56,770 nucleotides of DNA from positions 1 through 56,770 of IMG/VR virus record IMGVR_UViG_3300032893_000054; one strand, 5' to 3'. The translations under genes were made by a program, and so were the position numbers. Of this stretch, positions 18,456-56,770 are shown piece after piece (within the stretch, counting starts at the first letter, position 1; each line of letters begins with the position of its first letter). Source of the DNA: a virus. Taxonomy: Duplodnaviria; Caudoviricetes. Below the pieces are notes generated by a model that had not been told where the DNA came from, made no database searches, and saw nothing but the letters and a program-made list of their open reading frames with translations.

Positions 18456-21203
18456 TCAGCCAGTCGCGCATGCGGCCTTCCTCGGCTTCACGTCCACCTC
18501 GTGCATGTCGGCCCAGTTCGGCCCCACATTGCACTCGGCGTCGATCCACAGCCCGTCCGGCGCTATCGTCGGATGCCGGAGCACTTCCGAGGGCCGGATG
18601 AGGATGGGATATACTTCACGCACGTGCTCGTCAACCATGGCTGCTGGGAAGTGGAAGACGAGAGAATCGTGTACGTTGTTCGACAGTCCGTACTTCTCGT
18701 TGAGGCCAGCTTTCTCCAGTAGCTTGATGTGCTCTCGGATGTAGCCAAACGCAATATTAGACAGGTGGTAAGAGATGGCCTCTTCCGCCTGATCCCCGTG
18801 AGAGTAAGCAGCCTTCTTATAATCCCACCGAAAGACCTCATAGAAGCGGCGAATGTGCCCATATTGTGTCCTCTGGAATTGCTGCTCGTGCGCGAGCTGC
18901 TGGACCTTCTTGTGCCACTCGAAGACGCGCGGGAACAAGGATTCGACGACGTCGAGGAATTCCTGCGCCTCCTTCTGGCCACTGAAATCCTCCATGTGCT
19001 TCTCGTAGAGTCCGCGCGCCTTGAGCCCGTTGCCGATGCCGAGGATCGCGTGCTTCATGCGGGCGTCGCGGATGTGCTTCCACTCGGGATTGGACTTCAG
19101 CCATCGACACTTGGCGCGGATCTCCCCGTCACTATAGTCACGTAGTAAGTCGATAGCATGCCACAGTCCCAGCTTGTGTCCGGTAACGATAGAGTGCATG
19201 TCGATCCGGGCGCAGCGTATATAATTTGCATCTTCGGCCAAGAATCCAAGAGTAAGCACGTGACAGGACTTGTAATCCCACTCTGATAGAACATACCCCT
19301 CCTTCGCCGCGATCATCTTGCGTACCGCCTTCGCCAGCCGACCGTGCTTGGGGAAGTTCTGGATGTTCGGATTGCGGGACGAGAGCTGGCCTATTCCTGT
19401 ATCAAAGGTGAACGTCGTATGTGCGAAGCCGTCCGCGTGTGGCTTGAATCCTTCTATGTACGTGCCCCTCATTTTGGACAGTTCGCGATACTCGATCACC
19501 TTCAGGTAGAAGTTGTCACCGGTGCGATTGGCTAGGCGGACGAGTTCCTTCTTCGCTGTCGTGTCTTTGTCGTTGCCTTCGTCGTCTTGCTTGCGGGACT
19601 TGGGGCGCTTGTGACCTTTGGCATCCATGTAAGCGAGAAGCTGTAATCCCGAGTTAGCGTTAAAAGGCACGACTCGACACCAGCGCGTGACGCTTCGTCT
19701 ACAAGGTTCACCAGTATCCTTTTCAACTTCTGTGACTGTGAAGGTACGTTCAACAAGGCCTGTAGTGTCGTTCGGCGTCCGGATATACCCGTAGTCATAG
19801 TTTCCTTTCTTACCGCGTCGCGGCTCCAGTCCCAGCACTTCCTCCGGCACCCTCGACTGGAGTTCCGCGTCGAGCTCCTGCTGCGCCAAGTCGAATTCCC
19901 CGTCTAGCTGCAGCCGGGTGGCGTCATCCACAGGCAGCCCGCGGCGCTCCATGGCGGCGAGGATCGGACGCACCTGCTGCACCTGACCCACGTAACCGCT
20001 CACGCAGTCCCCATCAGCGTCGTACGGAGAATCGTAGATCTGGTCCCGCCGCAACTGTTGATCGAGGAACGTATACAGCCGCAGCGTCGCATCCACGTCC
20101 ACGCAGCCGTAGAACTCCAGGTTCGTCGCCGCTAGATGCTTCCACGGGAACGGGAACTGCACGAACTGGGCACAGAACTGCAGGTGCGCGGGGAGATCCG
20201 GCTGCCAGTGGTGGAACATCTGCAGGGTATCGTGGATCACGCCGCGGGGGCGGAGGTCTAGTCCTTCGCGGGCTCCGCAGGCTTCGAGGACTTTGTTGTC
20301 GAAGAGCCACACGTTATGCCCGAACTTGGCGTTGGACGATCGAAGAACTCTCTGAACAACGCTTCGATACGCTCCTTCCCAAGGGAGCGCAATTCCTTCT
20401 CCAGCGCCCGCGCTGAATTGCACAAGTCGTAGGCGGGTATCAGTAAATCCATCTCGGGCATCTTCGTCGAGTGAGGCTGACTCGTAAGTCTCGATATCAT
20501 AAGAGACGACAAGCGATTCATTGTCTTCAACTCGCCGAGCAAACGCTTCCGCCTCATCGATACTTGGGTGCGTTTGATACCGTAGCGTCGCATACGTCTC
20601 CTTCCTTTCCGGATCAATATTCCACAGCCACTCCCTGTCCCGGCCCGCGGCCACGTTGACCGCTTTCATCACGGTGCGGGACAGGAGGCCTTGGTAGGAG
20701 GCCTTGCCGCGGCGGATGAAGGCGGGATGGTAGCAGCCGACCGTCGGTATCCCGTCCGGCCCGGGCAACGTATACCCGCCCAAGTGTGACACGCCCCTCG
20801 CCTCCCCGGTCATCCCTGTGAGCTCCCTGAGCGCCGTGTCGCCCAGCGCGAGGATCGCCCGGGGGCGGCGCTCGGCGATAGCCGCGTCGAGGTTCGGGCG
20901 GCAGTGGGTCAGCGCGGACCACTCCCACGGTGCACCGGTGAGCCAGTTGTTGCGCGGGCGGCAGCGGAGCATGTTGGTGAGAGAGAACTGCTGCCGCGAG
21001 AGGCCCATCCGCTTGAAGGTACGTTCGAGGAGGGAGCCAGCGGGCGCGTAGGGGCGCAGGGGGAGCTGGTCGCGTGCTTCCATTTCACCAGATGCTTCCG
21101 CGACGACCATAACGCCGAGCGATCCGGAGCCTTCGACGCGGGAGAAGTCGGTGCCGTGGGAGTAACAAGGACAGTCGGTGCAGGATGGAGGCTTGCTACG
21201 CAT
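18456..21203 (-). CDS. Family A DNA polymerase with N-terminal family-4 uracil-DNA glycosylase-like domain and 3'-5' exonuclease
   Basis: UDG: CTDC, AEASGEME, TNMLRCRP, YHPA. Exo I/II/III: YDIET, GHNVWLFD, YGCVD. Pol: LSSRNPNIQN, WDYK, DMH, K..ILG, VHDS. Confidence 0.9.
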   Translation of the reverse strand: MRSKPPSCTDCPCYSHGTDFSRVEGSGSLGVMVVAEASGEMEARDQLPLRPYAPAGSLLERTFKRMGLSRQQFSLTNMLRCRPRNNWLTGAPWEWSALTHCRPNLDAAIAERRPRAILALGDTALRELTGMTGEARGVSHLGGYTLPGPDGIPTVGCYHPAFIRRGKASYQGLLSRTVMKAVNVAAGRDREWLWNIDPERKETYATLRYQTHPSIDEAEAFARRVEDNESLVVSYDIETYESASLDEDARDGFTDTRLRLVQFSAGAGEGIALPWEGAYRSVVQRVLRSSNAKFGHNVWLFDNKVLEACGAREGLDLRPRGVIHDTLQMFHHWQPDLPAHLQFCAQFVQFPFPWKHLAATNLEFYGCVDVDATLRLYTFLDQQLRRDQIYDSPYDADGDCVSGYVGQVQQVRPILAAMERRGLPVDDATRLQLDGEFDLAQQELDAELQSRVPEEVLGLEPRRGKKGNYDYGYIRTPNDTTGLVERTFTVTEVEKDTGEPCRRSVTRWCRVVPFNANSGLQLLAYMDAKGHKRPKSRKQDDEGNDKDTTAKKELVRLANRTGDNFYLKVIEYRELSKMRGTYIEGFKPHADGFAHTTFTFDTGIGQLSSRNPNIQNFPKHGRLAKAVRKMIAAKEGYVLSEWDYKSCHVLTLGFLAEDANYIRCARIDMHSIVTGHKLGLWHAIDLLRDYSDGEIRAKCRWLKSNPEWKHIRDARMKHAILGIGNGLKARGLYEKHMEDFSGQKEAQEFLDVVESLFPRVFEWHKKVQQLAHEQQFQRTQYGHIRRFYEVFRWDYKKAAYSHGDQAEEAISYHLSNIAFGYIREHIKLLEKAGLNEKYGLSNNVHDSLVFHFPAAMVDEHVREVYPILIRPSEVLRHPTIAPDGLWIDAECNVGPNWADMHEVDVKPRKAACATG

Positions 21204-24160: not shown

Positions 24161-25186
24161 CTATTTAGTTGATACTGTCGTTGTAGCCTTGCCGCGCCCT
24201 AGCTTCTCGTCGGCGCGCTGACGCCAACCTTGTAGTGTGTCCGCCTGGCCGGCGGCCAGTTCGTCCACCGTGGCCAGATAGCGGTCGAGCCCACCGGAAT
24301 CGTCGGACTCGAAGTATCCGCCCGGGAACCGCCGCTCCAACTCCTTCACCTTCTCCGGCGTCACACGCGGCTTGGCGGGGAACAGGATCCCGGTCGCAGG
24401 GTCCGGATGCTTCTTGTAATAGAACCGGACCACCGTGTCCAGCAGTTTCTGGTCGACCAGCTTGGACTTGTCCGTCGGGTCTGGCACCTTCTCGATGCGC
24501 TCGATCGAGTAATCCTGCGCGTGAATCAGGTCGCCCACCCATGAGCCGCATTGCGATGTCGCCTTCTTGCCGGAGATCGCAGGACCGTAGATCGTCGAAC
24601 GGTCGTCGTCTTCGGTCTTCGACTCCAGCGCGGTGTAGAGGACGTAGCGCAGAGGGAGGGAGTTGAAGTTCATCACCAGGCCGTAGAGGAAGTTCTGCAC
24701 GAAGCCGTAGTCGCCGCGCGTGGAGGACATGAACGATTCCTGCTGCGACACGCCATCAATGACCACTTGGTTGTAGAATCCGCCCAGCTTCGCCCGATCC
24801 TCGCCGCCCACGTTCTTATTGGTGTCGGGGAGATAGCGCATCGCGGCCGAGGTGATCGACGTCCAGCCTTCGACAATCATTCCGCCGATGAGATCGTAGT
24901 TGAGCCGGGTGAGTCCTTGCGCGCTGTAGGGGTCGGCCAGGTCCTTCGGCCAGTAGCCTTGCGACACCTTGCGCAGGATAGCCAGCGGCACGATCGTGGA
25001 GTCGCAGAAGAACGGCACGATCATCCCTGCGTCGATCTCGGGCTGGCACGGCCCCCAGCCGCCGCCATCCATGGAGAGGAGCGCGGTGGCCTTGCCGGTG
25101 GTGCGTGCGATGTAGTGCGCGAACCACTTGCCCTGGGTCGTCTTCCGCGATCCGGTAGAGCCGTAGACGCAGCCGCTCCTAGCCAT
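24161..25186 (-). CDS. AAA_24 / Sak4-like ATPase (recombination)
   Basis: N-terminal VYGSTGSRKTT (variant Walker A), IVEGWTS (Walker B-like), DYG, YGPAISGK. Confidence 0.75.
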   Translation of the reverse strand: MARSGCVYGSTGSRKTTQGKWFAHYIARTTGKATALLSMDGGGWGPCQPEIDAGMIVPFFCDSTIVPLAILRKVSQGYWPKDLADPYSAQGLTRLNYDLIGGMIVEGWTSITSAAMRYLPDTNKNVGGEDRAKLGGFYNQVVIDGVSQQESFMSSTRGDYGFVQNFLYGLVMNFNSLPLRYVLYTALESKTEDDDRSTIYGPAISGKKATSQCGSWVGDLIHAQDYSIERIEKVPDPTDKSKLVDQKLLDTVVRFYYKKHPDPATGILFPAKPRVTPEKVKELERRFPGGYFESDDSGGLDRYLATVDELAAGQADTLQGWRQRADEKLGRGKATTTVSTK

Positions 25187-26357: not shown

Positions 26358-26582
26358 TCATGGCAATCCTCCAGTCTCCCCGCGACCAATTTGGATGTCG
26401 TCGAATCCTGTGAACTTGGGTATAGCTGATCTACGCAGAACACACATATTTAACCGCCACATCTCATCGAGATAATCCAATGACTCATCTGTCGGCGCTT
26501 CAGGTATCCATACTTGGATAAGGCTATCGTGGCCTGACGTGCAGCCGATCTGGTACAAGCGCAATATAGGTTTCGTCGCCAT
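26358..26582 (-). CDS. Hypothetical protein
   Basis: Purine-rich RBS; member of the small-gene array. Confidence 0.5.
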   Translation of the reverse strand: MATKPILRLYQIGCTSGHDSLIQVWIPEAPTDESLDYLDEMWRLNMCVLRRSAIPKFTGFDDIQIGRGETGGLP

Positions 26583-26676
26583 TGTCCCTTCCTCCCTCAG
26601 CCCTCACTGCGATACGAAATATGAAACCAGCACAGCACCCGCCCGCACCAACCGACAATCGGTCGTGAACCGCGTG

Positions 26677-26931
26677 TCAGTGATGGTTGAACACGCTTGG
26701 ATCACATCTTCGACATTTGTAAACCATTGCCACCGTTACGCGAACCATCTGTAGACCGCAACGGGAACAGTTCGATTCCAATTTGGTCGCACCCGTGGCA
26801 CACGGTCGATTAACTTGAAATCCGTCGTCAAACCGAAGCCAGTGTCGCAAGATCCCATCGCCGTAGATGTCCTCCGCCTTTTTCCAGTGGCGCACATCTT
26901 GGCATCTAGCGCAGACTTTTCGGATATCCAT
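26677..26931 (-). CDS. Cys-rich (multiple CxxC) hypothetical protein
   Basis: CARC, CSRC, CRRC. Confidence 0.5.
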   Translation of the reverse strand: MDIRKVCARCQDVRHWKKAEDIYGDGILRHWLRFDDGFQVNRPCATGATKLESNCSRCGLQMVRVTVAMVYKCRRCDPSVFNHH

Positions 26932-27334
26932 GACAATCCTCACGTTGACATGCCTGTCCCTCTCCACAGTCGCAACTAGTCGTTTCTTCTAAATCTTGAA
27001 TCTGCTCGCATACAATGCACACACTATGCCAGCCGATATCATGCGGTGGATGTAGCTGGCGCAGCAATCGCGCCGCAACAGTCAGCCGCGACTGGGGATC
27101 AAGTTCCTTTGTAAGCGGGTTAAACGGGATACGCACTTTCTTTGATGTTTGATGGCGAGCTACCTTGCAATCATTCGGACAGGTGCAGGGTCCGTCTGGG
27201 TCTTTGCCATAACTACTCATAATCCCCTCACTTTTTTGGGGTTTCATGTGTCGTACTGACGTTCGTTCTTTTGACCCCCAGTACCCATCATGCCAACCTC
27301 GACCCTTAAAGTTCTGTCTGCGGAAACGGCTCAC
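26906..27334 (-). CDS. Cys-rich hypothetical protein (start uncertain)
   Basis: GTGA overlap upstream; CTCPNDC, CIVC. Confidence 0.45.
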   Translation of the reverse strand: MSRFRRQNFKGRGWHDGYWGSKERTSVRHMKPQKSEGIMSSYGKDPDGPCTCPNDCKVARHQTSKKVRIPFNPLTKELDPQSRLTVAARLLRQLHPPHDIGWHSVCIVCEQIQDLEETTSCDCGEGQACQREDCHGYPKSLR

Positions 27335-27519
27335 AACTGTTTCTCGGCTTTCTTGACCGCTTCATCATTCTGGCGATTCAGTTCGTCGTATTTCGCCTGA
27401 ACCTCTGGGCTCGCTTTGTCGTAGGCCGCTTGCATGTCGGCATCGGTTCCGTAGGGATAGACGCCTAGCAACTTGCGCATCTCATCCAAGATGGCGATGT
27501 GCTTCTCTTCCCAGTTCAT
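27331..27519 (-). CDS. Hypothetical helical protein (MNWEEKHIAIL...)
   Basis: GGAGGAAACAATG start context. Confidence 0.55.
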   Translation of the reverse strand: MNWEEKHIAILDEMRKLLGVYPYGTDADMQAAYDKASPEVQAKYDELNRQNDEAVKKAEKQL

Positions 27520-27592
27520 TGTTTCCTCCATTGAGTACAGCGGGAATCGGCTGCCATCCACTTCAGGAATTGAGGCTTACTAAGGCTCATAA

Positions 27593-27931
27593 TCAATCGA
27601 CGTCTCCGCATTCTGTGGACTCAGTGAAATCCTCAAAGCACTCGTTAGGTGAATTTACGGTCATCCACATCGACATGCACGTCTCGCAGCCTTCGCGATC
27701 TCCCACGGCACACACCATGCCTTTTTCGCCGAACAATCCGGTCTGGTCATTGATGATCTCTCCGTATCGCCGAACGCTGCGACTCTTGTAGCACCCGTAT
27801 CCATAACTCGACATCTTCTGATCTTCGTGCCACTCGCCGTAAACTGCATACCCATCAGGATGAGCGCCACAGCCAGTCAGAAATGGGGAGGTGGAGAGAA
27901 GCAAGAAGATGAGCAAGAATTGTGGCTTCAT
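27593..27931 (-). CDS. Putative lipoprotein, Cys-rich
   Basis: MKPQFLLIFLLLSTSPFLTG|C lipobox. Confidence 0.6.
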   Translation of the reverse strand: MKPQFLLIFLLLSTSPFLTGCGAHPDGYAVYGEWHEDQKMSSYGYGCYKSRSVRRYGEIINDQTGLFGEKGMVCAVGDREGCETCMSMWMTVNSPNECFEDFTESTECGDVD

Positions 27932-27944
27932 GATTGATTGATAT

Positions 27945-28051
27945 TCCTAGAAATGCTGTAAAACCTGTCGCGATCTTCTACGAAATTCGGGCATGGGCTA
28001 GGCTCCTTCTCCTAGAAATGCTGTAAAACCTGTCGCGATCTTCTACGAAAT
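27945..28051. repeat. 42-bp exact direct repeat (27945-27986 and 28010-28051) separated by the linker motif
   Basis: TCCTAGAAATGCTGTAAAACCTGTCGCGATCTTCTACGAAAT occurs twice, period 65. Confidence 0.95.
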
Positions 28052-28214
28052 AAGGCTTTTCTGCTTCGATCAGAATGTCATCACCTTCGTCGCTTTCGTA
28101 GTACAGGTCTTTGCTGTCAGGCACTCCGAAGAATGCCCGGAGGTTGCTGCCTTTATGTTCGCCACGCAGTAGAGCGTAATTCGTCTTGTTGTGCTTAATA
28201 TTTGCTATTTGCAT
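27978..28214 (-). CDS. Possible ubiquitin-like (beta-grasp, multi-ubiquitin-type) protein, 78 aa
   Basis: GGAGGAAACAATG start; pattern I.HN...Y......G..L...FGVP...DLY.......D.LI......V...DRFYS. Confidence 0.45.
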   Translation of the reverse strand: MQIANIKHNKTNYALLRGEHKGSNLRAFFGVPDSKDLYYESDEGDDILIEAEKPYFVEDRDRFYSISRRRSLAHARIS

Positions 28215-28237
28215 TGTTTCCTCCGTTCGGGCATGGG

Positions 28238-28462
28238 CTAGGCTCCTTCTCGTATGGGCACAAATTCGTAATCTTCGGAAGCGTCCGATTCGCCAGTCGT
28301 GCATGTGAAACACAGTCCACATCCTCCGTATCTCCATATAGGCTGACCACATTGGCACTTTCCACGAGATTTGGCGGCCCTCCGTAATTCCTTCAGGGTA
28401 CGCGTGTCACCTTGTTCCTTAGCTTGTTCTGGCGTTATGAAACCATAGAAATTGTTGGGCAT
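28238..28462 (-). CDS. Zn-finger-like hypothetical protein
   Basis: CQC, GLCFTCTTGESDASED; starts and ends in linker copies. Confidence 0.65.
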   Translation of the reverse strand: MPNNFYGFITPEQAKEQGDTRTLKELRRAAKSRGKCQCGQPIWRYGGCGLCFTCTTGESDASEDYEFVPIREGA

Positions 28463-28465
28463 GGG

Positions 28466-28756
28466 CTAGGCTCCTTTGCCTTCGTATGGTGGTGACAACC
28501 AAATATCCATGCAATCGAGGCAGGTGTAACACTTTGACCAGATGCCCTCGACTAAAGCGGATTCGTATCTCGCTTCCGTGCCTGCCGGGATTTCGTGCGG
28601 ATGCCCATTTAAAATCGGAGGAGGTACACAGGTAGCAGGCTTGCGCGTCTTGACAATTCTTACCTTGCGCAGCCGAATATCCGTTTCCCCGTCACCCCAC
28701 GGATAATTGAACGGATCGTGCCACAAGTACGTCGGGTCATTTAGGCGGTTTGTCAT
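28466..28756 (-). CDS. Zn-ribbon hypothetical protein
   Basis: KTRKPATC...IPAG...CLDC; ends in the linker. Confidence 0.65.
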   Translation of the reverse strand: MTNRLNDPTYLWHDPFNYPWGDGETDIRLRKVRIVKTRKPATCVPPPILNGHPHEIPAGTEARYESALVEGIWSKCYTCLDCMDIWLSPPYEGKGA

Positions 28757-28762
28757 GGTGGG

Positions 28763-29074
28763 CTAGGCTCCTTTGGGCGCGGCCTTCTCTGGTACGGAAT
28801 TGGTTCCTCCAGAATCGCGCGACGAACTCGTGTACCGGATCGTTCCGATAGCACCCGGTATTGGCTGTGGCGTTGCTTGCGGTAGGGACGAAACCCCAAA
28901 TGCGTGATTGATGACTCGGCAGACCACTTCGTAAAATATTCGCGCCGAAGCCTCATCTACGCTGTAGAACAGTCCGCAAACCGCCTGCCCGTAAGTCGTA
29001 GGATCAGTGCCGCGAAGTTCAACAATCCACTCTTTACCAGGCTTGCTAAGTTTTATTAGTTCCTGTGCATTCAT
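28763..29074 (-). CDS. Hypothetical protein
   Basis: RBS; ends in the linker (KGA-stop). Confidence 0.55.
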   Translation of the reverse strand: MNAQELIKLSKPGKEWIVELRGTDPTTYGQAVCGLFYSVDEASARIFYEVVCRVINHAFGVSSLPQATPQPIPGAIGTIRYTSSSRDSGGTNSVPEKAAPKGA

Positions 29075-29093
29075 TTCTGCGTCTCCCTCGCCC

Positions 29094-29327
29094 TCAAACT
29101 TCCGTGTCTAGTGAAATCGGGTAAGTTGTATGTCCGTGAACACAGACTCGCACTGGCCGACCGAAAAGAACTCTCAACCGTTCCTTCCATGTCAGACGCC
29201 AGTACGAAGCTATGAATCCGTCACCGTCGCTTATCGGCAAGCCGACAATCGGCCCGTCAGTCTCTTCATCCCAGAACGGCGGAGCGCCTAGAACTCTCGT
29301 TGTGTGTGGAAGTGATATTGGTTTCAT
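29094..29327 (-). CDS. Hypothetical protein
   Basis: LGAP..WD....LP...SYWRLTWKERL pattern; RBS. Confidence 0.65.
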   Translation of the reverse strand: MKPISLPHTTRVLGAPPFWDEETDGPIVGLPISDGDGFIASYWRLTWKERLRVLFGRPVRVCVHGHTTYPISLDTEV

Positions 29328-29545
29328 CGCGTCTCCTTCGATCTCTCGGCCTCAGCGATCACTTGATTTGCTTCATACTTCGCTATTGCGAACGTGGCAC
29401 ACGTTCCGTTATCGTGCCCACGCTCCCAGTAAACCGACCACGCCCATCTCTGTAACGGCGAAGGGGCGCCAAAAATCTCCGCATTGGCTTCAGAAGACGA
29501 ATAGAAATACAGCTTCGGCTTCTTGCGCGTCCACGAGCCTTTCAC
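29324..29545 (-). CDS. Hypothetical protein
   Basis: Coupled overlaps at both ends. Confidence 0.5.
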   Translation of the reverse strand: MKGSWTRKKPKLYFYSSSEANAEIFGAPSPLQRWAWSVYWERGHDNGTCATFAIAKYEANQVIAEAERSKETR

Positions 29546-30198
29546 TGGGATTCTCCCTTCGATCTCTCGGCGGTCGGCGGAGCCAAGAACGGACGAAGAA
29601 GTATCTGAATCCGCCTCAGCGCAAACTCGGCATCCTCGCCATCTTCAACTTGATTCTCGCCACTGCACCATTTGTCAATTTCGCGTGCTACGGCTATCCA
29701 CGGTGACTCGACCGAAGAACGCGCCGCCTTCGCCTGCCAGCCTAGCCAGTAGTGCTGCACGTGGTCTAATACATAATCTCCATCCTCGTCGCGTTTGAAC
29801 CAATCGGCCTCCAGAGGCATGGCATCAGCTTCATACCATTCCTCAAACTCCGCTCGTTCGTCCGTTGGCTCCGTACCTACGTCCGTCGCTCTCCGATTTA
29901 CGATCTGATCGCCGTCTACGTCCAGCGGCTCTCTTCCGCATTCCGGGCAAGGCTCGATCAGCATTTTGCCGTGAGAGCAGTCCGTCGCTGGGCGCATCGC
30001 CTCCGATTGTTGCTCGATATAATCGGCTAGAATCACGTCCACATCTTCGGGATGCGGCGGAACATGCAAACTCGGTGCAGGCTTCCCGTTGTACACGGCC
30101 CCGTGGTACTTACGAACGGCCTCGCGTGCCATTTCGTGCGTAACAATCCTCTTACCTGCTTGCGGCGTCCGAGTTGGCGCTGTCCTCTCAGTAGACAT
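29542..30198 (-). CDS. Mosaic multi-domain hypothetical protein
   Basis: AAGGAA RBS; ERAEFEEW...WLGWQA module typical of phage early proteins. Confidence 0.6.
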   Translation of the reverse strand: MSTERTAPTRTPQAGKRIVTHEMAREAVRKYHGAVYNGKPAPSLHVPPHPEDVDVILADYIEQQSEAMRPATDCSHGKMLIEPCPECGREPLDVDGDQIVNRRATDVGTEPTDERAEFEEWYEADAMPLEADWFKRDEDGDYVLDHVQHYWLGWQAKAARSSVESPWIAVAREIDKWCSGENQVEDGEDAEFALRRIQILLRPFLAPPTAERSKGESQ

Positions 30199-30559
30199 AA
30201 ATTCCTTTCTTTGCTACAAAGCACGTCCCCGAAGTTTGTCCCGGTGGGATGGGGCCCTACCCGCGTACTATCGTGATGTGGCCAGATGGACAAACGAACA
30301 CCTTTCCCGCAGGAGAGCCATGCGGAGCGCTATCGGGATGAGCCATGTCCGGTATCGAGCAAACGGAACAGTACACTCGATAACTTTGCCCCGGTTTTGT
30401 CTTTACGCGAGAGCCGTTTTTCTTGCCGTGTCGATCAGTCTTTCCTTTGATTCTGATGTCCACCACTCACCACCTTCTCCTACGCTTGGGGGTAGGGACC
30501 CATCCCACTGAATTGACCAACAGCAAAACTGTTTAGCAAATAAGGGCTGTCCTCTCAGT
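30179..30559. repeat. Cassette bounded by 14-bp direct repeats, with internal 19-bp inverted repeats
   Basis: DR GCTGTCCTCTCAGT at 30179-30192 and 30546-30559; IR at 30244-30262 and 30490-30508 (1 mismatch). Confidence 0.85.
30257..30466 (-). CDS. Small basic Zn-ribbon protein inside the inverted repeats
   Basis: AGGAGAAGGTGG upstream; CSVC...CPSGH. Confidence 0.5.
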   Translation of the reverse strand: MVDIRIKGKTDRHGKKNGSRVKTKPGQSYRVYCSVCSIPDMAHPDSAPHGSPAGKVFVCPSGHITIVRG

Positions 30560-30560
30560 C

Positions 30561-32147
30561 TCACTCATGGCTCCGGGCCTCCTTCTCCATCACGTGATTC
30601 GGCTCGCGCCGGCGATACAGCCCAGATCCCAGTGGATCGCGCTGCAGGTCTTCCGAGCCCCAGCAGATCTTCGACATGGCGCAGGTGGAGGGGTACTCGC
30701 AGGCCTTCCGAGTCTGGCTGAAGTGCTGATTCAATAGGCTGCGCCGCTCGCCCTCATCGGTTGTGGATTCCAGCTGCGCCACGGCCTCAGCCACGCGCCG
30801 CTCCTGGTACTCGGTCTGCTCCACCCAGTTTCGTAACTCTTCGTCTTGCCGGAACACAGTGATCGGCGGAACGAATACCGCGTCCAGAGGATGCTGGGCC
30901 GTGTAGCCGACCGCCTGCGCGCGCGACTTCCATCCCACGGGACGCGGGTCGGCGCCGGTGGTCGAGTCGTAGGCGGACATGGTCTCCTCGGCGTCGTCAA
31001 GCGCGTCGATCCACGCACGGACGCTGCCACCGTGCTCCCACACCGGCTCGCCGTGCCAGTTGGACGCGGACAGTTTGGACGTCGATCCGTCCTCCAGATG
31101 GTAGTCCCACGACCACGCCTGATCGCCGACGTTGAATGCCGATGCGTTCTTCCCTCGCGATGGCGTCGAATGGGCCACGAAGCGGCGGATCAGGTGCGAG
31201 CGCTGGGACCACACGTTGAGCCCGAACCGCTGGGAGAGTTCCTTGTCCTGCCACCTACTGCCCTTGAGCAGATATTCGTAGCGGATGCCGAGGATCCGGG
31301 GTGGGGCGGGTACTCCCCCGAGGAAGTTGACCACAGGCAGCACTTCGGCCGCGGTGTAGCCTGCCGGGACATTCAGCAGCCCTCCGGCTTGGCGCATCTC
31401 CTGCCACCATGCCGCCAGCCGCCGCTCCACCTCCACGCCCTCGCTCAGCCCCTGCATGTCGTGCTCGGCATCGCGGGCCTTGCGGATGTCCCACGACGCT
31501 GCCGTCTTGAATGAGAGGAGGTAGAGGGAATTGTCGTTCCGGTTGCGGAGGAGCGCGTCGGGGCGGGACATGAAGCGGATCGCAGGGACTACCGTCAGAT
31601 TAGTACCGTGTACTCCTTCGTAGAGTTCCCAGTCCCCCTCCCGCTCCACCTCCAGCACCTCGTACTCCTCCAGCAGGGGACGGAGGCGGCGCCTAGAGTA
31701 AGCGCGGACGAGTCCCTCCACCAAGCTGGCTTGCTCCTGCCACAGCCAGTCATCGAACTGGGCTGACGCGCTGTCCCGCTGCTTGGCCAGCGCCACGAGG
31801 GACGGATCGTCCGCGGGGAGGCCCAGATCGGCCGCCGTAGCCAGCATCTGCGACTCCAGCGACTGAGGATCGACGGTGGTCATCGCGGTGAGCTCGGTGG
31901 TGTCGAGCGCCAGGGCGCGGCGGTGGGTGGCAAAGTCAGCAAGGGCAGCGGCGACCGCAACGTCCTCGGTATCGCCCAGCAGGAGATGTTCGAGGCCCAC
32001 GTGGACGGAGCCGCCGACACACAAGGCTAAAGGTTTGCGTGCTGGTGCAATTCCTGTCCCGTTCTGGTGATACTCCAGAAATCTCAAACGCGGACACCGT
32101 TGGTATGTCTCCGTTCTCGACCGATCAGTCCACACGATGTCAGGCAT
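30561..32147 (-). CDS. PD-(D/E)XK Cas4/RecB/AddB-like exonuclease
   Basis: YQRCPR, GGSVH, EVERE, RPDALL, SFKT, and C-terminal CEYPSTC...C (Fe-S staple). Confidence 0.75.
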   Translation of the reverse strand: MPDIVWTDRSRTETYQRCPRLRFLEYHQNGTGIAPARKPLALCVGGSVHVGLEHLLLGDTEDVAVAAALADFATHRRALALDTTELTAMTTVDPQSLESQMLATAADLGLPADDPSLVALAKQRDSASAQFDDWLWQEQASLVEGLVRAYSRRRLRPLLEEYEVLEVEREGDWELYEGVHGTNLTVVPAIRFMSRPDALLRNRNDNSLYLLSFKTAASWDIRKARDAEHDMQGLSEGVEVERRLAAWWQEMRQAGGLLNVPAGYTAAEVLPVVNFLGGVPAPPRILGIRYEYLLKGSRWQDKELSQRFGLNVWSQRSHLIRRFVAHSTPSRGKNASAFNVGDQAWSWDYHLEDGSTSKLSASNWHGEPVWEHGGSVRAWIDALDDAEETMSAYDSTTGADPRPVGWKSRAQAVGYTAQHPLDAVFVPPITVFRQDEELRNWVEQTEYQERRVAEAVAQLESTTDEGERRSLLNQHFSQTRKACEYPSTCAMSKICWGSEDLQRDPLGSGLYRRREPNHVMEKEARSHE

Positions 32148-32389: not shown

Positions 32390-32418
32390 ACTCTACCGCG
32401 GACGTGGGTAGTTGTCAA
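32390..32418 (-). promoter_or_regulatory. Sigma70-like leftward promoter
   Basis: TTGACA-17nt-TAGAGT. Confidence 0.65.
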
Positions 32419-32445
32419 GCATTAAAAATTTAGAATTGTGGGGAA

Positions 32446-32475
32446 TTGACAATTATTGGCTTGTCGCGGTATAGT
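32446..32475 (+). promoter_or_regulatory. Sigma70-like rightward promoter, back-to-back with the leftward one
   Basis: TTGACA-18nt-TATAGT; AT-rich spacer between the two -35 boxes. Confidence 0.6.
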
Positions 32476-32500
32476 AGCCTTCGTGCATACTCCTGGAACC

Positions 32501-32752
32501 ATGATAGCCATCGAGGACTCGCGGCCAAAGGGCGGTCGTCCGCTGGGCGAGTGGGGAAGGATCGTCCAGGACCTGCTGGATGCCGAAGCCGCCGGAAAGC
32601 GCTGCCACGTCATCGAGGAGCGCAAGCTGACCCTGAGCCAGCGCAACCGTATCCGTTGTGCCGCTGCGTATCGCAAGCGCGCAATCCACATATCCACATC
32701 ACCGATTGGTTGCCGTATATGGTTGGGGGAGCACAAGCCGACTAAAAATTAA
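32501..32752 (+). CDS. Small basic putative DNA-binding protein
   Basis: First ORF after the rightward promoter; GGRP and basic helices. Confidence 0.5.
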   Translation: MIAIEDSRPKGGRPLGEWGRIVQDLLDAEAAGKRCHVIEERKLTLSQRNRIRCAAAYRKRAIHISTSPIGCRIWLGEHKPTKN

Positions 32753-56202: not shown

Positions 56203-56770
56203 ATGGCCAAGCCGATCCTCCACTCCCGCTGGCTCCGCGGCATCCAGGCTGGCTTCGACCGCTACTCGCAGCCGAAGGGATCGATCGCCCGGGCCTCGTG
56301 CATCGTGCTGACCCGGCGCGGCGCGCTCAAGACCTGCGACGGCACACAGCTCATCACGGAATACAACTCCGCGCTCCAGTCCTCGTTCGGCCCGATCACG
56401 GAGGTGTTCCTGTTCCAGCCGACCGGCGCCGACGCGGCCTACTTCGGGATCGCCAAGGATCTCTCGACGCACATCGGCGCGCCATCCGGGCTCGGCGCAG
56501 CGGCCGGGGCAGCAGGCGTTCTCACGGGCACCTACAAATACGTCATCACCGGCCTCGACGGCGCGGGCGGGGAGACCACCAAGTCCAACGAAGCCACGGT
56601 CTCTCTCACCGCGCAAAAGGGATCCCTCTCATGGACCGCGCTCGCGAACGCCGCTGGTGGCTACAACATCTACCGCACCGTCGCAGGCGGCGCCTCGGGC
56701 ACGGAGCACTTCGTCGCGACCGTCGCTGGCCAATCCACGGTCGCCTACACCGACAACACCGCCGACGGCT
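56203..56770 (+). CDS. 5' part of the tail nozzle/hub gene (continues through the join to 2157)
   Basis: AAAGGAG upstream; MAKPILHSRWLRGIQAG...RRGALKTCDG; open to the window end and in frame with base 1. Confidence 0.75.
   Translation, partial: MAKPILHSRWLRGIQAGFDRYSQPKGSIARASCIVLTRRGALKTCDGTQLITEYNSALQSSFGPITEVFLFQPTGADAAYFGIAKDLSTHIGAPSGLGAAAGAAGVLTGTYKYVITGLDGAGGETTKSNEATVSLTAQKGSLSWTALANAAGGYNIYRTVAGGASGTEHFVATVAGQSTVAYTDNTADG
56644..56770. repeat. Terminal direct repeat, copy 2
   Basis: Identical to 1-127. Confidence 0.95.

Follow-up and report, generated by a model that had tools for sequence, protein, structure and literature searches.

The window examined here is the complete 56,770-nt IMG/VR virus record IMGVR_UViG_3300032893_000054 (Duplodnaviria; Caudoviricetes), which derives from an uncultured phage of a wetland and the ends of which overlap by 127 nt. 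Between positions 27,945 and 29,074 its minus strand carries an array of small genes joined by four copies of a short repeated linker, termed J, and the fourth copy is flanked on both sides by an exact 42-nt repeat, termed A, a structure referred to as A-J-A. The array belongs to a long operon on the minus strand, which is made up of small genes that match no family and runs from divergent promoter-like sites near 32,400-32,530, and the J copies are situated in this early, non-structural operon. From the analysis below, J is probably a translational-coupling junction that also provides short homology for cassette swaps, with A-J-A being a derived insertion that contains a copy of the third linker, J3. 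The features of the array, from high to low coordinates, are listed here, with "stop" marking a stop codon.

28763..29074, minus strand: A1, a 103-aa ORFan (MNAQE...SSLPQATPQ...AAPKGA-stop) with no Pfam and no PHROG match.
28759..28786, minus strand: J1, with the long left arm GGCCGCGCCCAAAGGAGCCTAGCCCA; it closes A1 (...AAPKGA-stop), and A2 starts 3 nt further on (CC ATG).
28466..28756, minus strand: A2, a 96-aa Cys-rich ORFan (ending ...GKGA-stop) with a weak match to phrog_19515.
28457..28478, minus strand: J2; it closes A2 (...EGKGA-stop), and its ATG is the start of A3.
28238..28462, minus strand: A3, a 74-aa Cys-rich ORFan (ending ...REGA-stop) with no Pfam match.
28226..28254, minus strand: J3; it closes A3 (...REGA-stop), and from its ATG a leader of 9 codons (28205-28234) extends into the ribosome site that belongs to A4.
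27978..28214, minus strand: A4, a 78-aa ORFan whose last 10 residues are rewritten by the J4 insertion, ending ...SRRRSLAHARIS-stop.
28010..28051, minus strand: A copy 1, which covers the native A4 frame over its final 42 nt, to ...SISR.
27986..28014, minus strand: J4, identical to J3 at 26 of 26 nt; A4 reads through it out of frame.
27945..27986, minus strand: A copy 2, identical to copy 1 over the 42 nt and leading on to the native end ...NINQS-stop.
27593..27931, minus strand: a lipoprotein-like gene of 112 aa, with a signal peptide and LTGC lipobox recognized by eye only and no family match.
27517..27529, minus strand: a second linker type, GGAGGAAACAATG, at the start of the gene g76; the same 13 nt stand at the A4 start (28212-28224).

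The linker word AAGGAGCCTAGCCCA was found in four exact copies, all on the minus strand (27994-28008, 28234-28248, 28462-28476, and 28759-28773), against a chance expectation of 0.05. None of 100 shuffles reached four or more copies, and no fifth copy was present in the whole 56,770-nt record. J3 and J4 are identical over 26 nt, or over 29 nt with one mismatch, while J2, J3, and J4 have 20 nt in common. Leaving the 127-nt terminal overlap aside, A and J are the longest direct repeats of the record, the next being 18 nt. Three signals lie within J: a ribosome site that reads AAGGAG or GGAG, the TAG at which the preceding gene ends, and, 8 nt beyond GGAG, an ATG; the positions outside the Shine-Dalgarno (SD) sequence are CCTAGCCC. 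The first-pass annotation, made by a model from the sequence alone, had described four copies of a linker that supplies the end and TAG of one gene together with the ribosome site and ATG of the next, the last two copies being identical over 26 nt and the fourth being flanked by an exact 42-nt repeat. All of these observations were borne out, with three genes ending KGA-stop, KGA-stop, and EGA-stop and the TAG located within J.

When the window was combined with seven related metagenome contigs described below, 22 copies of J (21 exact and one variant) were available for comparison. J spans 13-28 nt around the core GGAGCCTAGCCC(A), which is invariant in 21 of the 22 copies, and its flanks vary. 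Nineteen copies close the upstream open reading frame (ORF) as ...GA-stop, and at least 14 different ORFs end in J. The ATG of J opens a real ORF in 15 of the 22 copies, and in the other seven it begins a short leader, 7-22 codons long, that extends into a second ribosome site. Within the window, the J3 leader enters A4's own ribosome site, GGAGGAAACAATG, located 20 nt after J3, and the 15-codon leader that begins at the ATG of J4 (27947-27994) ends 15 nt short of the lipoprotein ATG. The SD sequence, TAG, and ATG supplied by J would couple the translation of each small gene to that of the one before it, forming a chain. A search of the minus strand across the array (27900-29100) gave neither promoter-like nor terminator-like sites, and the sole inverted-repeat pair found in 27400-29400 lies outside J. 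The possibility that the array genes are paralogues was considered and rejected, as the J-terminated ORFs differ when compared by eye and only an A1-like set shares start, middle, and end blocks.

Metagenome contigs were scanned for the 17-mer AAGGAGCCTAGCCCATG (J plus TG), which yielded 116 loci (L046-L161). J was single-copy in 109 of these; 36 of the 116 represent one conserved bacterial junction (...DERKGA-stop/MNLFKRIEG...), and most of the others are single, unrelated gene starts. This bacterial junction accounted for 17 of the 50 loci (L162-L211) recovered from 185,579 prokaryote species genomes, all of which carry J in single copy and none of which encodes a relative of the window ORFs. 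The carriers of this junction are mostly Candidatus Aminicenantes. A capture of J from such a host was considered and set aside: the exact 17-mer was the search word, and its recovery there is an ascertainment effect that says nothing on the host. The 15-mer gave 17 single matches in viral contigs, none related to the window, and a blastn search with positions 26500-30500 found no match among 50,697 phage records.

Seven wetland metagenome contigs (L049, L058, L062, L064, L107, L124, and L144) were found to be related to the array. Together they contain 17 further exact J cores and one variant, placed between other small genes, with two to four cores in five of the contigs, one core plus the variant in L049, and a single core in L144. 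The cassettes that they share are 95-100% identical at the nucleotide level, A2 reaching 95-100% in L064 and L107 and A3 reaching 98% in L049. In L064, A2 and J lead straight onto g76; L049 reads J(variant)-A3-J-g76; and in L107, A2 and J are followed by a 69-aa gene, another J, and a truncated lipoprotein-like start. This last start (L107 8216-8300; MKFFLIFLLLSTS...) runs for 22 codons before it stops and represents either a remnant or a tiny peptide. A 51-aa gene (MRCKARTE...) is followed by J and a 73-aa gene in L062, and by J and a 100-aa gene (MSWHYKFF...) in L124; the same 100-aa gene is preceded by a 101-aa gene in L144. The 26-28-nt arm of J1 recurs behind different genes in L058 (twice), L062, L064, L107, L124, and L144. 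In L049, L064, and a sequencing run designated X3, the J3 leader is joined to g76 through the 13-nt word GGAGGAAACAATG, with 695 nt skipped and the 13 letters common to both sides, and Logan contigs of three further wetland runs contain the same alternative joints.

Apart from the shared cassettes, no ORF of L049, L064, or L107 is matched in this complete genome, and the other backbone genes of these contigs include an FtsK/SpoIIIE-like ATPase, a VWA protein, endonuclease VII, and a 345-aa PD-(D/E)XK nuclease. These comparisons indicate that gene content changes at J between near-identical sequences placed in different backbones. Relatives with different gene sets between J copies, as the earlier account had anticipated, are thus represented by all seven contigs, and because of them the gene order cannot be regarded as invariant. 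Breakpoints were defined as the internal ends of blastn matches of at least 80 nt and at least 90% identity. We found that 15 of 38 such breakpoints lie within 25 nt of a J core versus 3.8% of the sequence (binomial P = 3e-12, for pairs that share cassettes and are not independent). In L058, no ORF reads into the long left arm GGCCGCGCCCAAAGGAGCCTAGCCC of the core at position 1336, and homologues of A2 elsewhere terminate in ...EGK or ...EGR(G) without the GA tail. These two observations indicate that J is a unit copied at the DNA level rather than a convergent peptide tail. The A2 homologues on viral contigs (L040-L045) have only A2 in common with the window and carry no J.

The A-J-A structure was then considered as a possible record of how one linker copy arose. 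The two copies of A are identical at 42 of 42 nt and stand 65 nt apart, giving a layout of 42 + 23 + 42 nt and a total of 107 nt. A 32-nt period assigned to the same stretch by Tandem Repeats Finder was rejected as spurious, as the former layout fits better. After the second copy of A the sequence reads ...SRNINQS-stop, the TGA of which overlaps the ATG of the lipoprotein-like gene (ATGA). The first-pass annotation had pointed out that collapsing A-J-A restores a contiguous ...FYSISRNINQS-stop, and this reading was supported as the native end of A4 by an independent homologue, P0011 (73 aa, on a separate 628-nt contig), which is 65% identical to A4 and ends ...FYSVSRKINQS. Among 5.8 billion clustered proteins, P0011 is the only A4 homologue outside A4's own 90% cluster; a 25-nt probe from A and the A4 protein gave no match in viral contigs. 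Because P0011 keeps the predicted collapsed end, the uninterrupted A4 end is taken to be ancestral and the 65 nt to be inserted. A-J-A accordingly reads as a derived 65-nt insertion, composed of a 23-nt J segment and 42 nt of A, into a former ATGA junction.

With regard to the source of the inserted linker, J4 and J3 share the left flank GAGAA, which is absent from the other 20 copies, as well as the right flank CCCGAA. Since these private flanks of J3 recur in J4 (26 of 26 nt), J4 looks like a local copy of J3, which lies 240 nt upstream, or both have been homogenised. The microhomology at the two joints amounts to 2 nt (GA) and 1 nt (A). A flanking duplication was found at one of the 21 exact cores (J4, 42 nt) and not at the variant, with the other 20 exact cores having at most 10 nt in common between their flanks. 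A-J-A may have formed by a double template switch during replication or, alternatively, by an illegitimate tandem duplication of 240 nt, after which the second A4 body was lost. We read A-J-A as a putative one-off templated insertion, the scar of a new linker copy, and not as the usual route for J-flanked cassettes. Microhomology-driven copying, which had been offered earlier as the simpler alternative, is likelier than a dedicated capture machine and provides the better reading of A-J-A.

A form with a single copy of A and without the J4 core was present in another sample. A 506-nt contig of run X2 joins position 27945 to 28006 and contains one A, GAGAAG, AATATC..., and the first codons of the lipoprotein. 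The translation of this allele corresponds to P0012 (159 aa, from A4's 90% cluster, on a 3,031-nt contig), which reads MNAQE...SSLPQAT, followed by A4 and ...SISMRRRSINHEATILAH... Because GAGAAG is the private left flank of J4 and the conserved stop is lost, the X2/P0012 allele is most simply interpreted as a 60-nt deletion derivative of an A-J-A ancestor. Regardless of how it arose, this allele gives independent evidence that the joint between A and the flank of J is genuine DNA, and it shows that A4 can also move by itself, A4 being fused here behind the intragenic SSLPQAT block.

The combination of coupling and homology is favored as the reading of J because similarity breaks at J while, beyond the array, no detectable similarity links the contigs to this genome. 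Under this reading, J would bring the SD sequence, the upstream TAG, and the ATG to successive genes, and it is, as the comparison of contigs shows, the short common sequence where co-occurring wetland phages with different backbones gain, lose, and re-pair whole genes by homology. The exchange would probably be carried out by general phage recombination functions rather than by a dedicated integrase, with the candidates in this genome being a borderline PD-(D/E)XK nuclease and a weak, partial match to a Sak4-like protein. Several points weigh against this interpretation. Recombination at J is read from breakpoints, from which gain and loss are indistinguishable in direction, and the translational role of J is deduced from the layout of its signals. 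Twenty-three of the 38 breakpoints do not lie at J, several of them falling at other linkers when judged by eye. Selection for intact genes could also concentrate the surviving breakpoints at junctions. Relaxed homologous recombination by phage recombinases is treated by De Paepe et al. 2014 (PMC3945230), the cited passages of which give a minimum of about 30 nt for Red-beta; because the 13-28 nt of J are at or below this minimum, homologous exchange through J only would be inefficient. At the joints of A-J-A, microhomology is limited to 1-2 nt. The X2/P0012 allele also admits a second interpretation, as an older allele that supplied 6 nt of microhomology. The related contigs all derive from wetland metagenomes that may belong to one campaign, and for this reason they may represent few independent populations. 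The assembly check of A-J-A was made on contigs and unitigs of four runs.

In its form, J is closest to the start-associated sequence (SAS) of the cluster K mycobacteriophages. According to the cited passages of Pope et al. 2011 (PMC3203893), SAS is a 13-nt asymmetric repeat with the consensus 5'-GGGATAGGAGCCC that carries AGGAG 3-7 nt before a start codon. Its copies extend over half a genome among non-structural genes, stand before different families, sometimes include the upstream stop, and in about half of the cases are accompanied by an additional 17-bp inverted repeat (extended SAS, ESAS); the same passages (PMC3203893) discuss SAS as a translation signal of unknown function and not as a recombination joint. 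As far as those passages describe it, J resembles SAS in its single orientation, in the AAGGAG placed 8 nt before ATG, in a conserved block that reaches the ATG, and in its location within a non-structural operon. It differs in its core, GGAGCCTAGCCC, in the tandem arrangement of copies within 0.8 kb, in belonging to an unrelated phage, and in having no ESAS repeat; cassette exchange is, moreover, documented at J by breakpoints, which is a further difference from SAS as described there.

This likeness raises the alternative that J is primarily a regulatory site, recognized in an SAS-like manner by ribosomes or by some factor of phage or host origin, with its identity kept by selection and the breakpoints arising as a by-product. 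We consider this possible but clearly less probable than coupling combined with exchange, with which it is nevertheless compatible. Only rearrangements that leave genes and expression signals intact would survive under such selection. The asymmetric form, single orientation, AGGAG a few nt before the ATG, upstream stop, and association with non-structural genes all speak in its favor, as does a core that is invariant in 21 of 22 copies between variable flanks. The 17-mer is also a natural junction in Aminicenantes-type bacteria (36 of 116 and 17 of 50 loci), which implies that it is workable in cells. However, many sequences would satisfy the requirements of a ribosome site with suitable spacing, and the other junctions of the operon use different ones. 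Cassettes that are 95-100% identical across otherwise unrelated backbones point to recent exchange rather than long-term selection, and no binding factor is known.

The first-pass annotation had further proposed that overlapping fragments of one donor were inserted separately, and a version of this idea driven by ordinary recombination was also weighed. A-J-A would then result from recombination at J between two genomes, each with a separately acquired A4-lipoprotein piece, one parent contributing A4 to the end of A and then J, and the other contributing J followed by A and the lipoprotein gene. Exchange between genomes at J is frequent, the alleles differ after A (the native ...NINQS versus the GAGAAG of X2 and P0012), and the different upstream partner of A4 in P0012 implies that A4 can move alone. 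Such a history nevertheless requires three events where one or two suffice. No contig was found with J-A-lipoprotein minus A4, or with A4-A-J before another gene; the left flank GAGAA of J4 otherwise occurs only at J3 of the same genome; and the two copies of A are identical at 42 of 42 nt. A two-genome origin is hence judged rather unlikely, and the copying of J3 within one genome remains the preferred account of J4.

It is very improbable that A-J-A is an assembly artefact that merges two strain variants, even though several array variants co-occur in the same samples and J4 is spanned by no listed unitig of the probable source run, X1, contigs only having been compared. The 107-nt A-J-A is shorter than the exact 127-nt terminal overlap (1-127 and 56644-56770), which is most likely the closing overlap of a circular assembly and not a biological terminal repeat, and which we infer to reflect the assembly word length. 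If 127 nt is the word length, every word across A-J-A was read. In X1, the 42-nt A unitig has a depth of 33.5 versus 11.4 for the flank, approximately three times as much. The joint from A into the left flank of J4 is also found in the X2 contig, which comes from a different sample, and in P0012, and a simple variant graph creates no A-to-J edge without real reads. From this examination, A-J-A is considered real with high probability.

The setting of the array was assessed against its backbone genes, two of which flank the variable region.

30561..32147, minus strand: a conserved backbone gene on the upstream side of the variable region, encoding a 528-aa nuclease whose PD-(D/E)XK_1 match is borderline (E 1.6e-4, 22.1 bits versus a cut-off of 22).
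24161..25186, minus strand: a conserved backbone gene on the downstream side of the variable region, encoding a 341-aa protein whose match to a Sak4-like PHROG is weak.

The 341-aa protein matches phrog_124 (E 4.6e-7) over residues 156-217 of 341 only and has no Pfam match. Eighteen IMG/VR relatives were identified through the polymerase, with 40-78% identity; it was noted that this protein (18456-21203) is a uracil-DNA glycosylase domain fused to a family A polymerase. The backbone order in the relatives is the 528-aa nuclease, a variable stretch, the 341-aa protein, a 249-aa protein, a helicase, and the polymerase, with the nuclease found in 10 of the 18 and the Sak4-like gene in 16. In the ten relatives showing both the nuclease and the 341-aa gene, the interval between them consists of 1.0-4.7 kb of unrelated DNA versus 5.4 kb here, and neither A1-A4 nor the lipoprotein gene is present between the two. 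The J core was found in none of the 18 relatives, and the nuclease used as a probe in viral contigs recovered no relatives. Because the relatives keep the backbone without J or the array genes, the array is, as judged from gene content, an accessory and fast-changing part of an otherwise conserved replication-recombination module.

The 528-aa protein had been called a Cas4-like nuclease in the first-pass annotation; what stands behind that label is the borderline PD-(D/E)XK_1 match, and no Cas4-family match was obtained. Neither Cas1 nor the Cas4 family (PF01867, PF01930) was matched in the complete genome, for which the controls matched, and no tyrosine integrase (PF00589) was matched there either, with the control matched in 14 of 14 genomes. 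A Pfam scan for recombinase families, including PF00589, gave matches in 0 of 38 ORFs of the related contigs. Because the flanking duplication is a lone case and Cas1, Cas4-family, and tyrosine integrase matches are lacking, the earlier proposal of a CRISPR-like capture that duplicates J at each insertion is not supported. A dedicated acquisition machine, akin to CRISPR adaptation or an integron and using the nuclease with the Sak4-like protein to insert gene-sized pieces while duplicating J, is thus hardly credible: the array does resemble repeats with gene-sized spacers, lies between the PD-(D/E)XK nuclease and the Sak4-like gene, and differs among relatives by whole cassettes at J, but the searches above gave no candidate enzyme, the nuclease (10 of 18) and Sak4-like gene (16 of 18) are backbone genes in relatives without a J array, the sole inverted-repeat pair of the region lies outside J, and the single duplication, at J4, is of the target A and not of J.

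The array is neither an integron nor CRISPR-like. It resembles an integron in being a one-directional array of small, promoterless, and mostly unknown genes with a recurring site and a content that varies among relatives, but it has no IntI-type integrase match and J overlaps the coding ends of its neighbors. J also has no attC-like symmetry, since the only inverted-repeat pair of 27400-29400 is located elsewhere, and attC sites are much longer than the 13-28 nt of J. It differs from CRISPR adaptation in that no Cas1 was matched and in that the lone duplication concerns the target A rather than the repeat J.

Closer comparisons are offered by known modes of phage mosaicism. Susskind and Botstein in 1978 and Clark et al. 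in 2001 are said to have placed boundary or "linker" sequences within the modular theory of lambdoid phage evolution. J shares with these linkers the short conserved sequences at gene boundaries, the clustering of mosaic joints, and a phage annealing protein as the likely catalyst. It differs in being an exact repeat present four times in a row, in including the coding ends of both neighbors, and in having one copy whose duplication scar shows how that copy arose.

The promoter-early stem-loop elements (PeSLs) of T4-type phages, treated by Arbiol et al. 2010 and by Comeau et al. 2014 (PMC4122927), provide another parallel. In the cited passages of Arbiol et al. 2010 (PMC2839356), PeSLs are conserved expression cassettes located beside ORFans in hyperplastic regions; they bound insertions, deletions, and replacements between close relatives without an integrase, and they consist of approximately 100 bp with a sigma-70 promoter, a stem-loop terminator, and an SD site, mini-circles having been shown by inverse PCR. 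Relative to that description, J likewise stands beside ORFans without a Pfam family in a variable stretch, with 15 of 38 breakpoints at most 25 nt away, and it is likewise an element that brings expression signals to whatever gene lands beside it. However, J sits within a single operon, where any effect that it has would be on translation, and the T4-type phages are unrelated to this phage. Lacking both a promoter and a stem-loop, and being only 13-28 nt in length, J does not qualify as a PeSL.

The array is a clear case of a known kind of phage-genome reshuffling, and the locus reveals no new kind of machinery; what stands out is a base-pair record of the birth of a joint and of exchange between unrelated backbones. 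The manner in which phages shuffle small accessory genes without dedicated recombinases is poorly documented at the base-pair level, and such genes often serve host take-over or counter-defence. The present locus provides a natural example in which one 13-28-nt stop, ribosome-site, and start joint occurs at 22 places in eight sequences, and the origin of J4 can be reconstructed because the independent homologue P0011 keeps the pre-insertion gene end. Scarless gene linkers might also be designed after the natural model of J.

A number of further short blocks in the region behave like J. One of these, a third linker type, is present at the following position.

29335..29350, minus strand: GCCGAGAGATCGAAGG (...AERSK...) at the end of the gene g73, with a second copy at the end of g218 (29556-29571).

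The same GCCGAGAGATCGAAGG block also closes ORFs in L049 and L064. The block ACTGAGAGGACAGC (MSETERTA...) opens g218 and recurs directly after the nuclease stop, and a start block, ...GAGACGCAGAAATGAATGCACAGGA (MNAQE...), is likewise recurrent. The start, middle, and end blocks of A1 recur in other ORFs. Its middle contains a 30-37-nt in-frame block (28862-28898, ...SSLPQATPQ...) that is 94-100% identical inside at least five otherwise different ORFs, at L058 789-823 and 2049-2085, L064 4646-4684, L124 342-375 and 518-542, L144 (reversed) 91-129, and L049 1177-1206. This block looks like a joint within genes at which halves of proteins would be swapped.

Tentatively, and with less confidence than in the reading of J itself, J and its sister blocks, including SSLPQATPQ, could be viewed as a "junction grammar" shared by wetland viruses, in which the spread of linkers is active and self-reinforcing. 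Under such a grammar, phages whose backbones are unrelated could exchange complete genes, or even halves of proteins, without leaving a scar. A new joint would form when a neighboring linker is copied into an ordinary overlap between genes, a linker birth of which A-J-A would be the first example caught. If this were true, fixed operons would become shuffling arrays, and the linkers would be more than a passive trace of selection.

Additional observations were made on these blocks and on A4. For A4, which the first-pass annotation had described as Ubl-like, the AlphaFold model, built on a 2-sequence alignment, had a pLDDT of 56.4 and a pTM of 0.39 and was too poor for a fold search. The two copies of the g218-start block lie at 30179-30192 and 30546-30559, with approximately 350 nt of unrelated insert between them (30200-30545), and the tiny ORF MSETERTALIC-stop directly after the stop of the 528-aa nuclease is a partial duplicate of the g218 start (MSTERTA...). 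This makes it a second case of an insertion bordered by copies of a junction block. The start MSETERTAP opens other genes in L049 and L107. At the A1 start (29059-29090) a ...GETQK-stop/MNAQE... block is present, and this block and GCCGAGAGATCGAAGG are 97-100% shared with L049 and L064, with other genes between them. Short repeats were also noted in polymerase relatives that carry no J: in L029 the ribosome-site and start word GGGAGGCTCGCAATGA occurs twice in the variable stretch, at 2520 and 2708, and elsewhere a C-terminal and ribosome-site word, AAGGCGTCCGCAGAGAA, and a promoter-like TTGACA word each occur twice, the sites of the repeats in these relatives being L029 2520 and 2708, L024 3870-4220, and L026 1096 and 4906.

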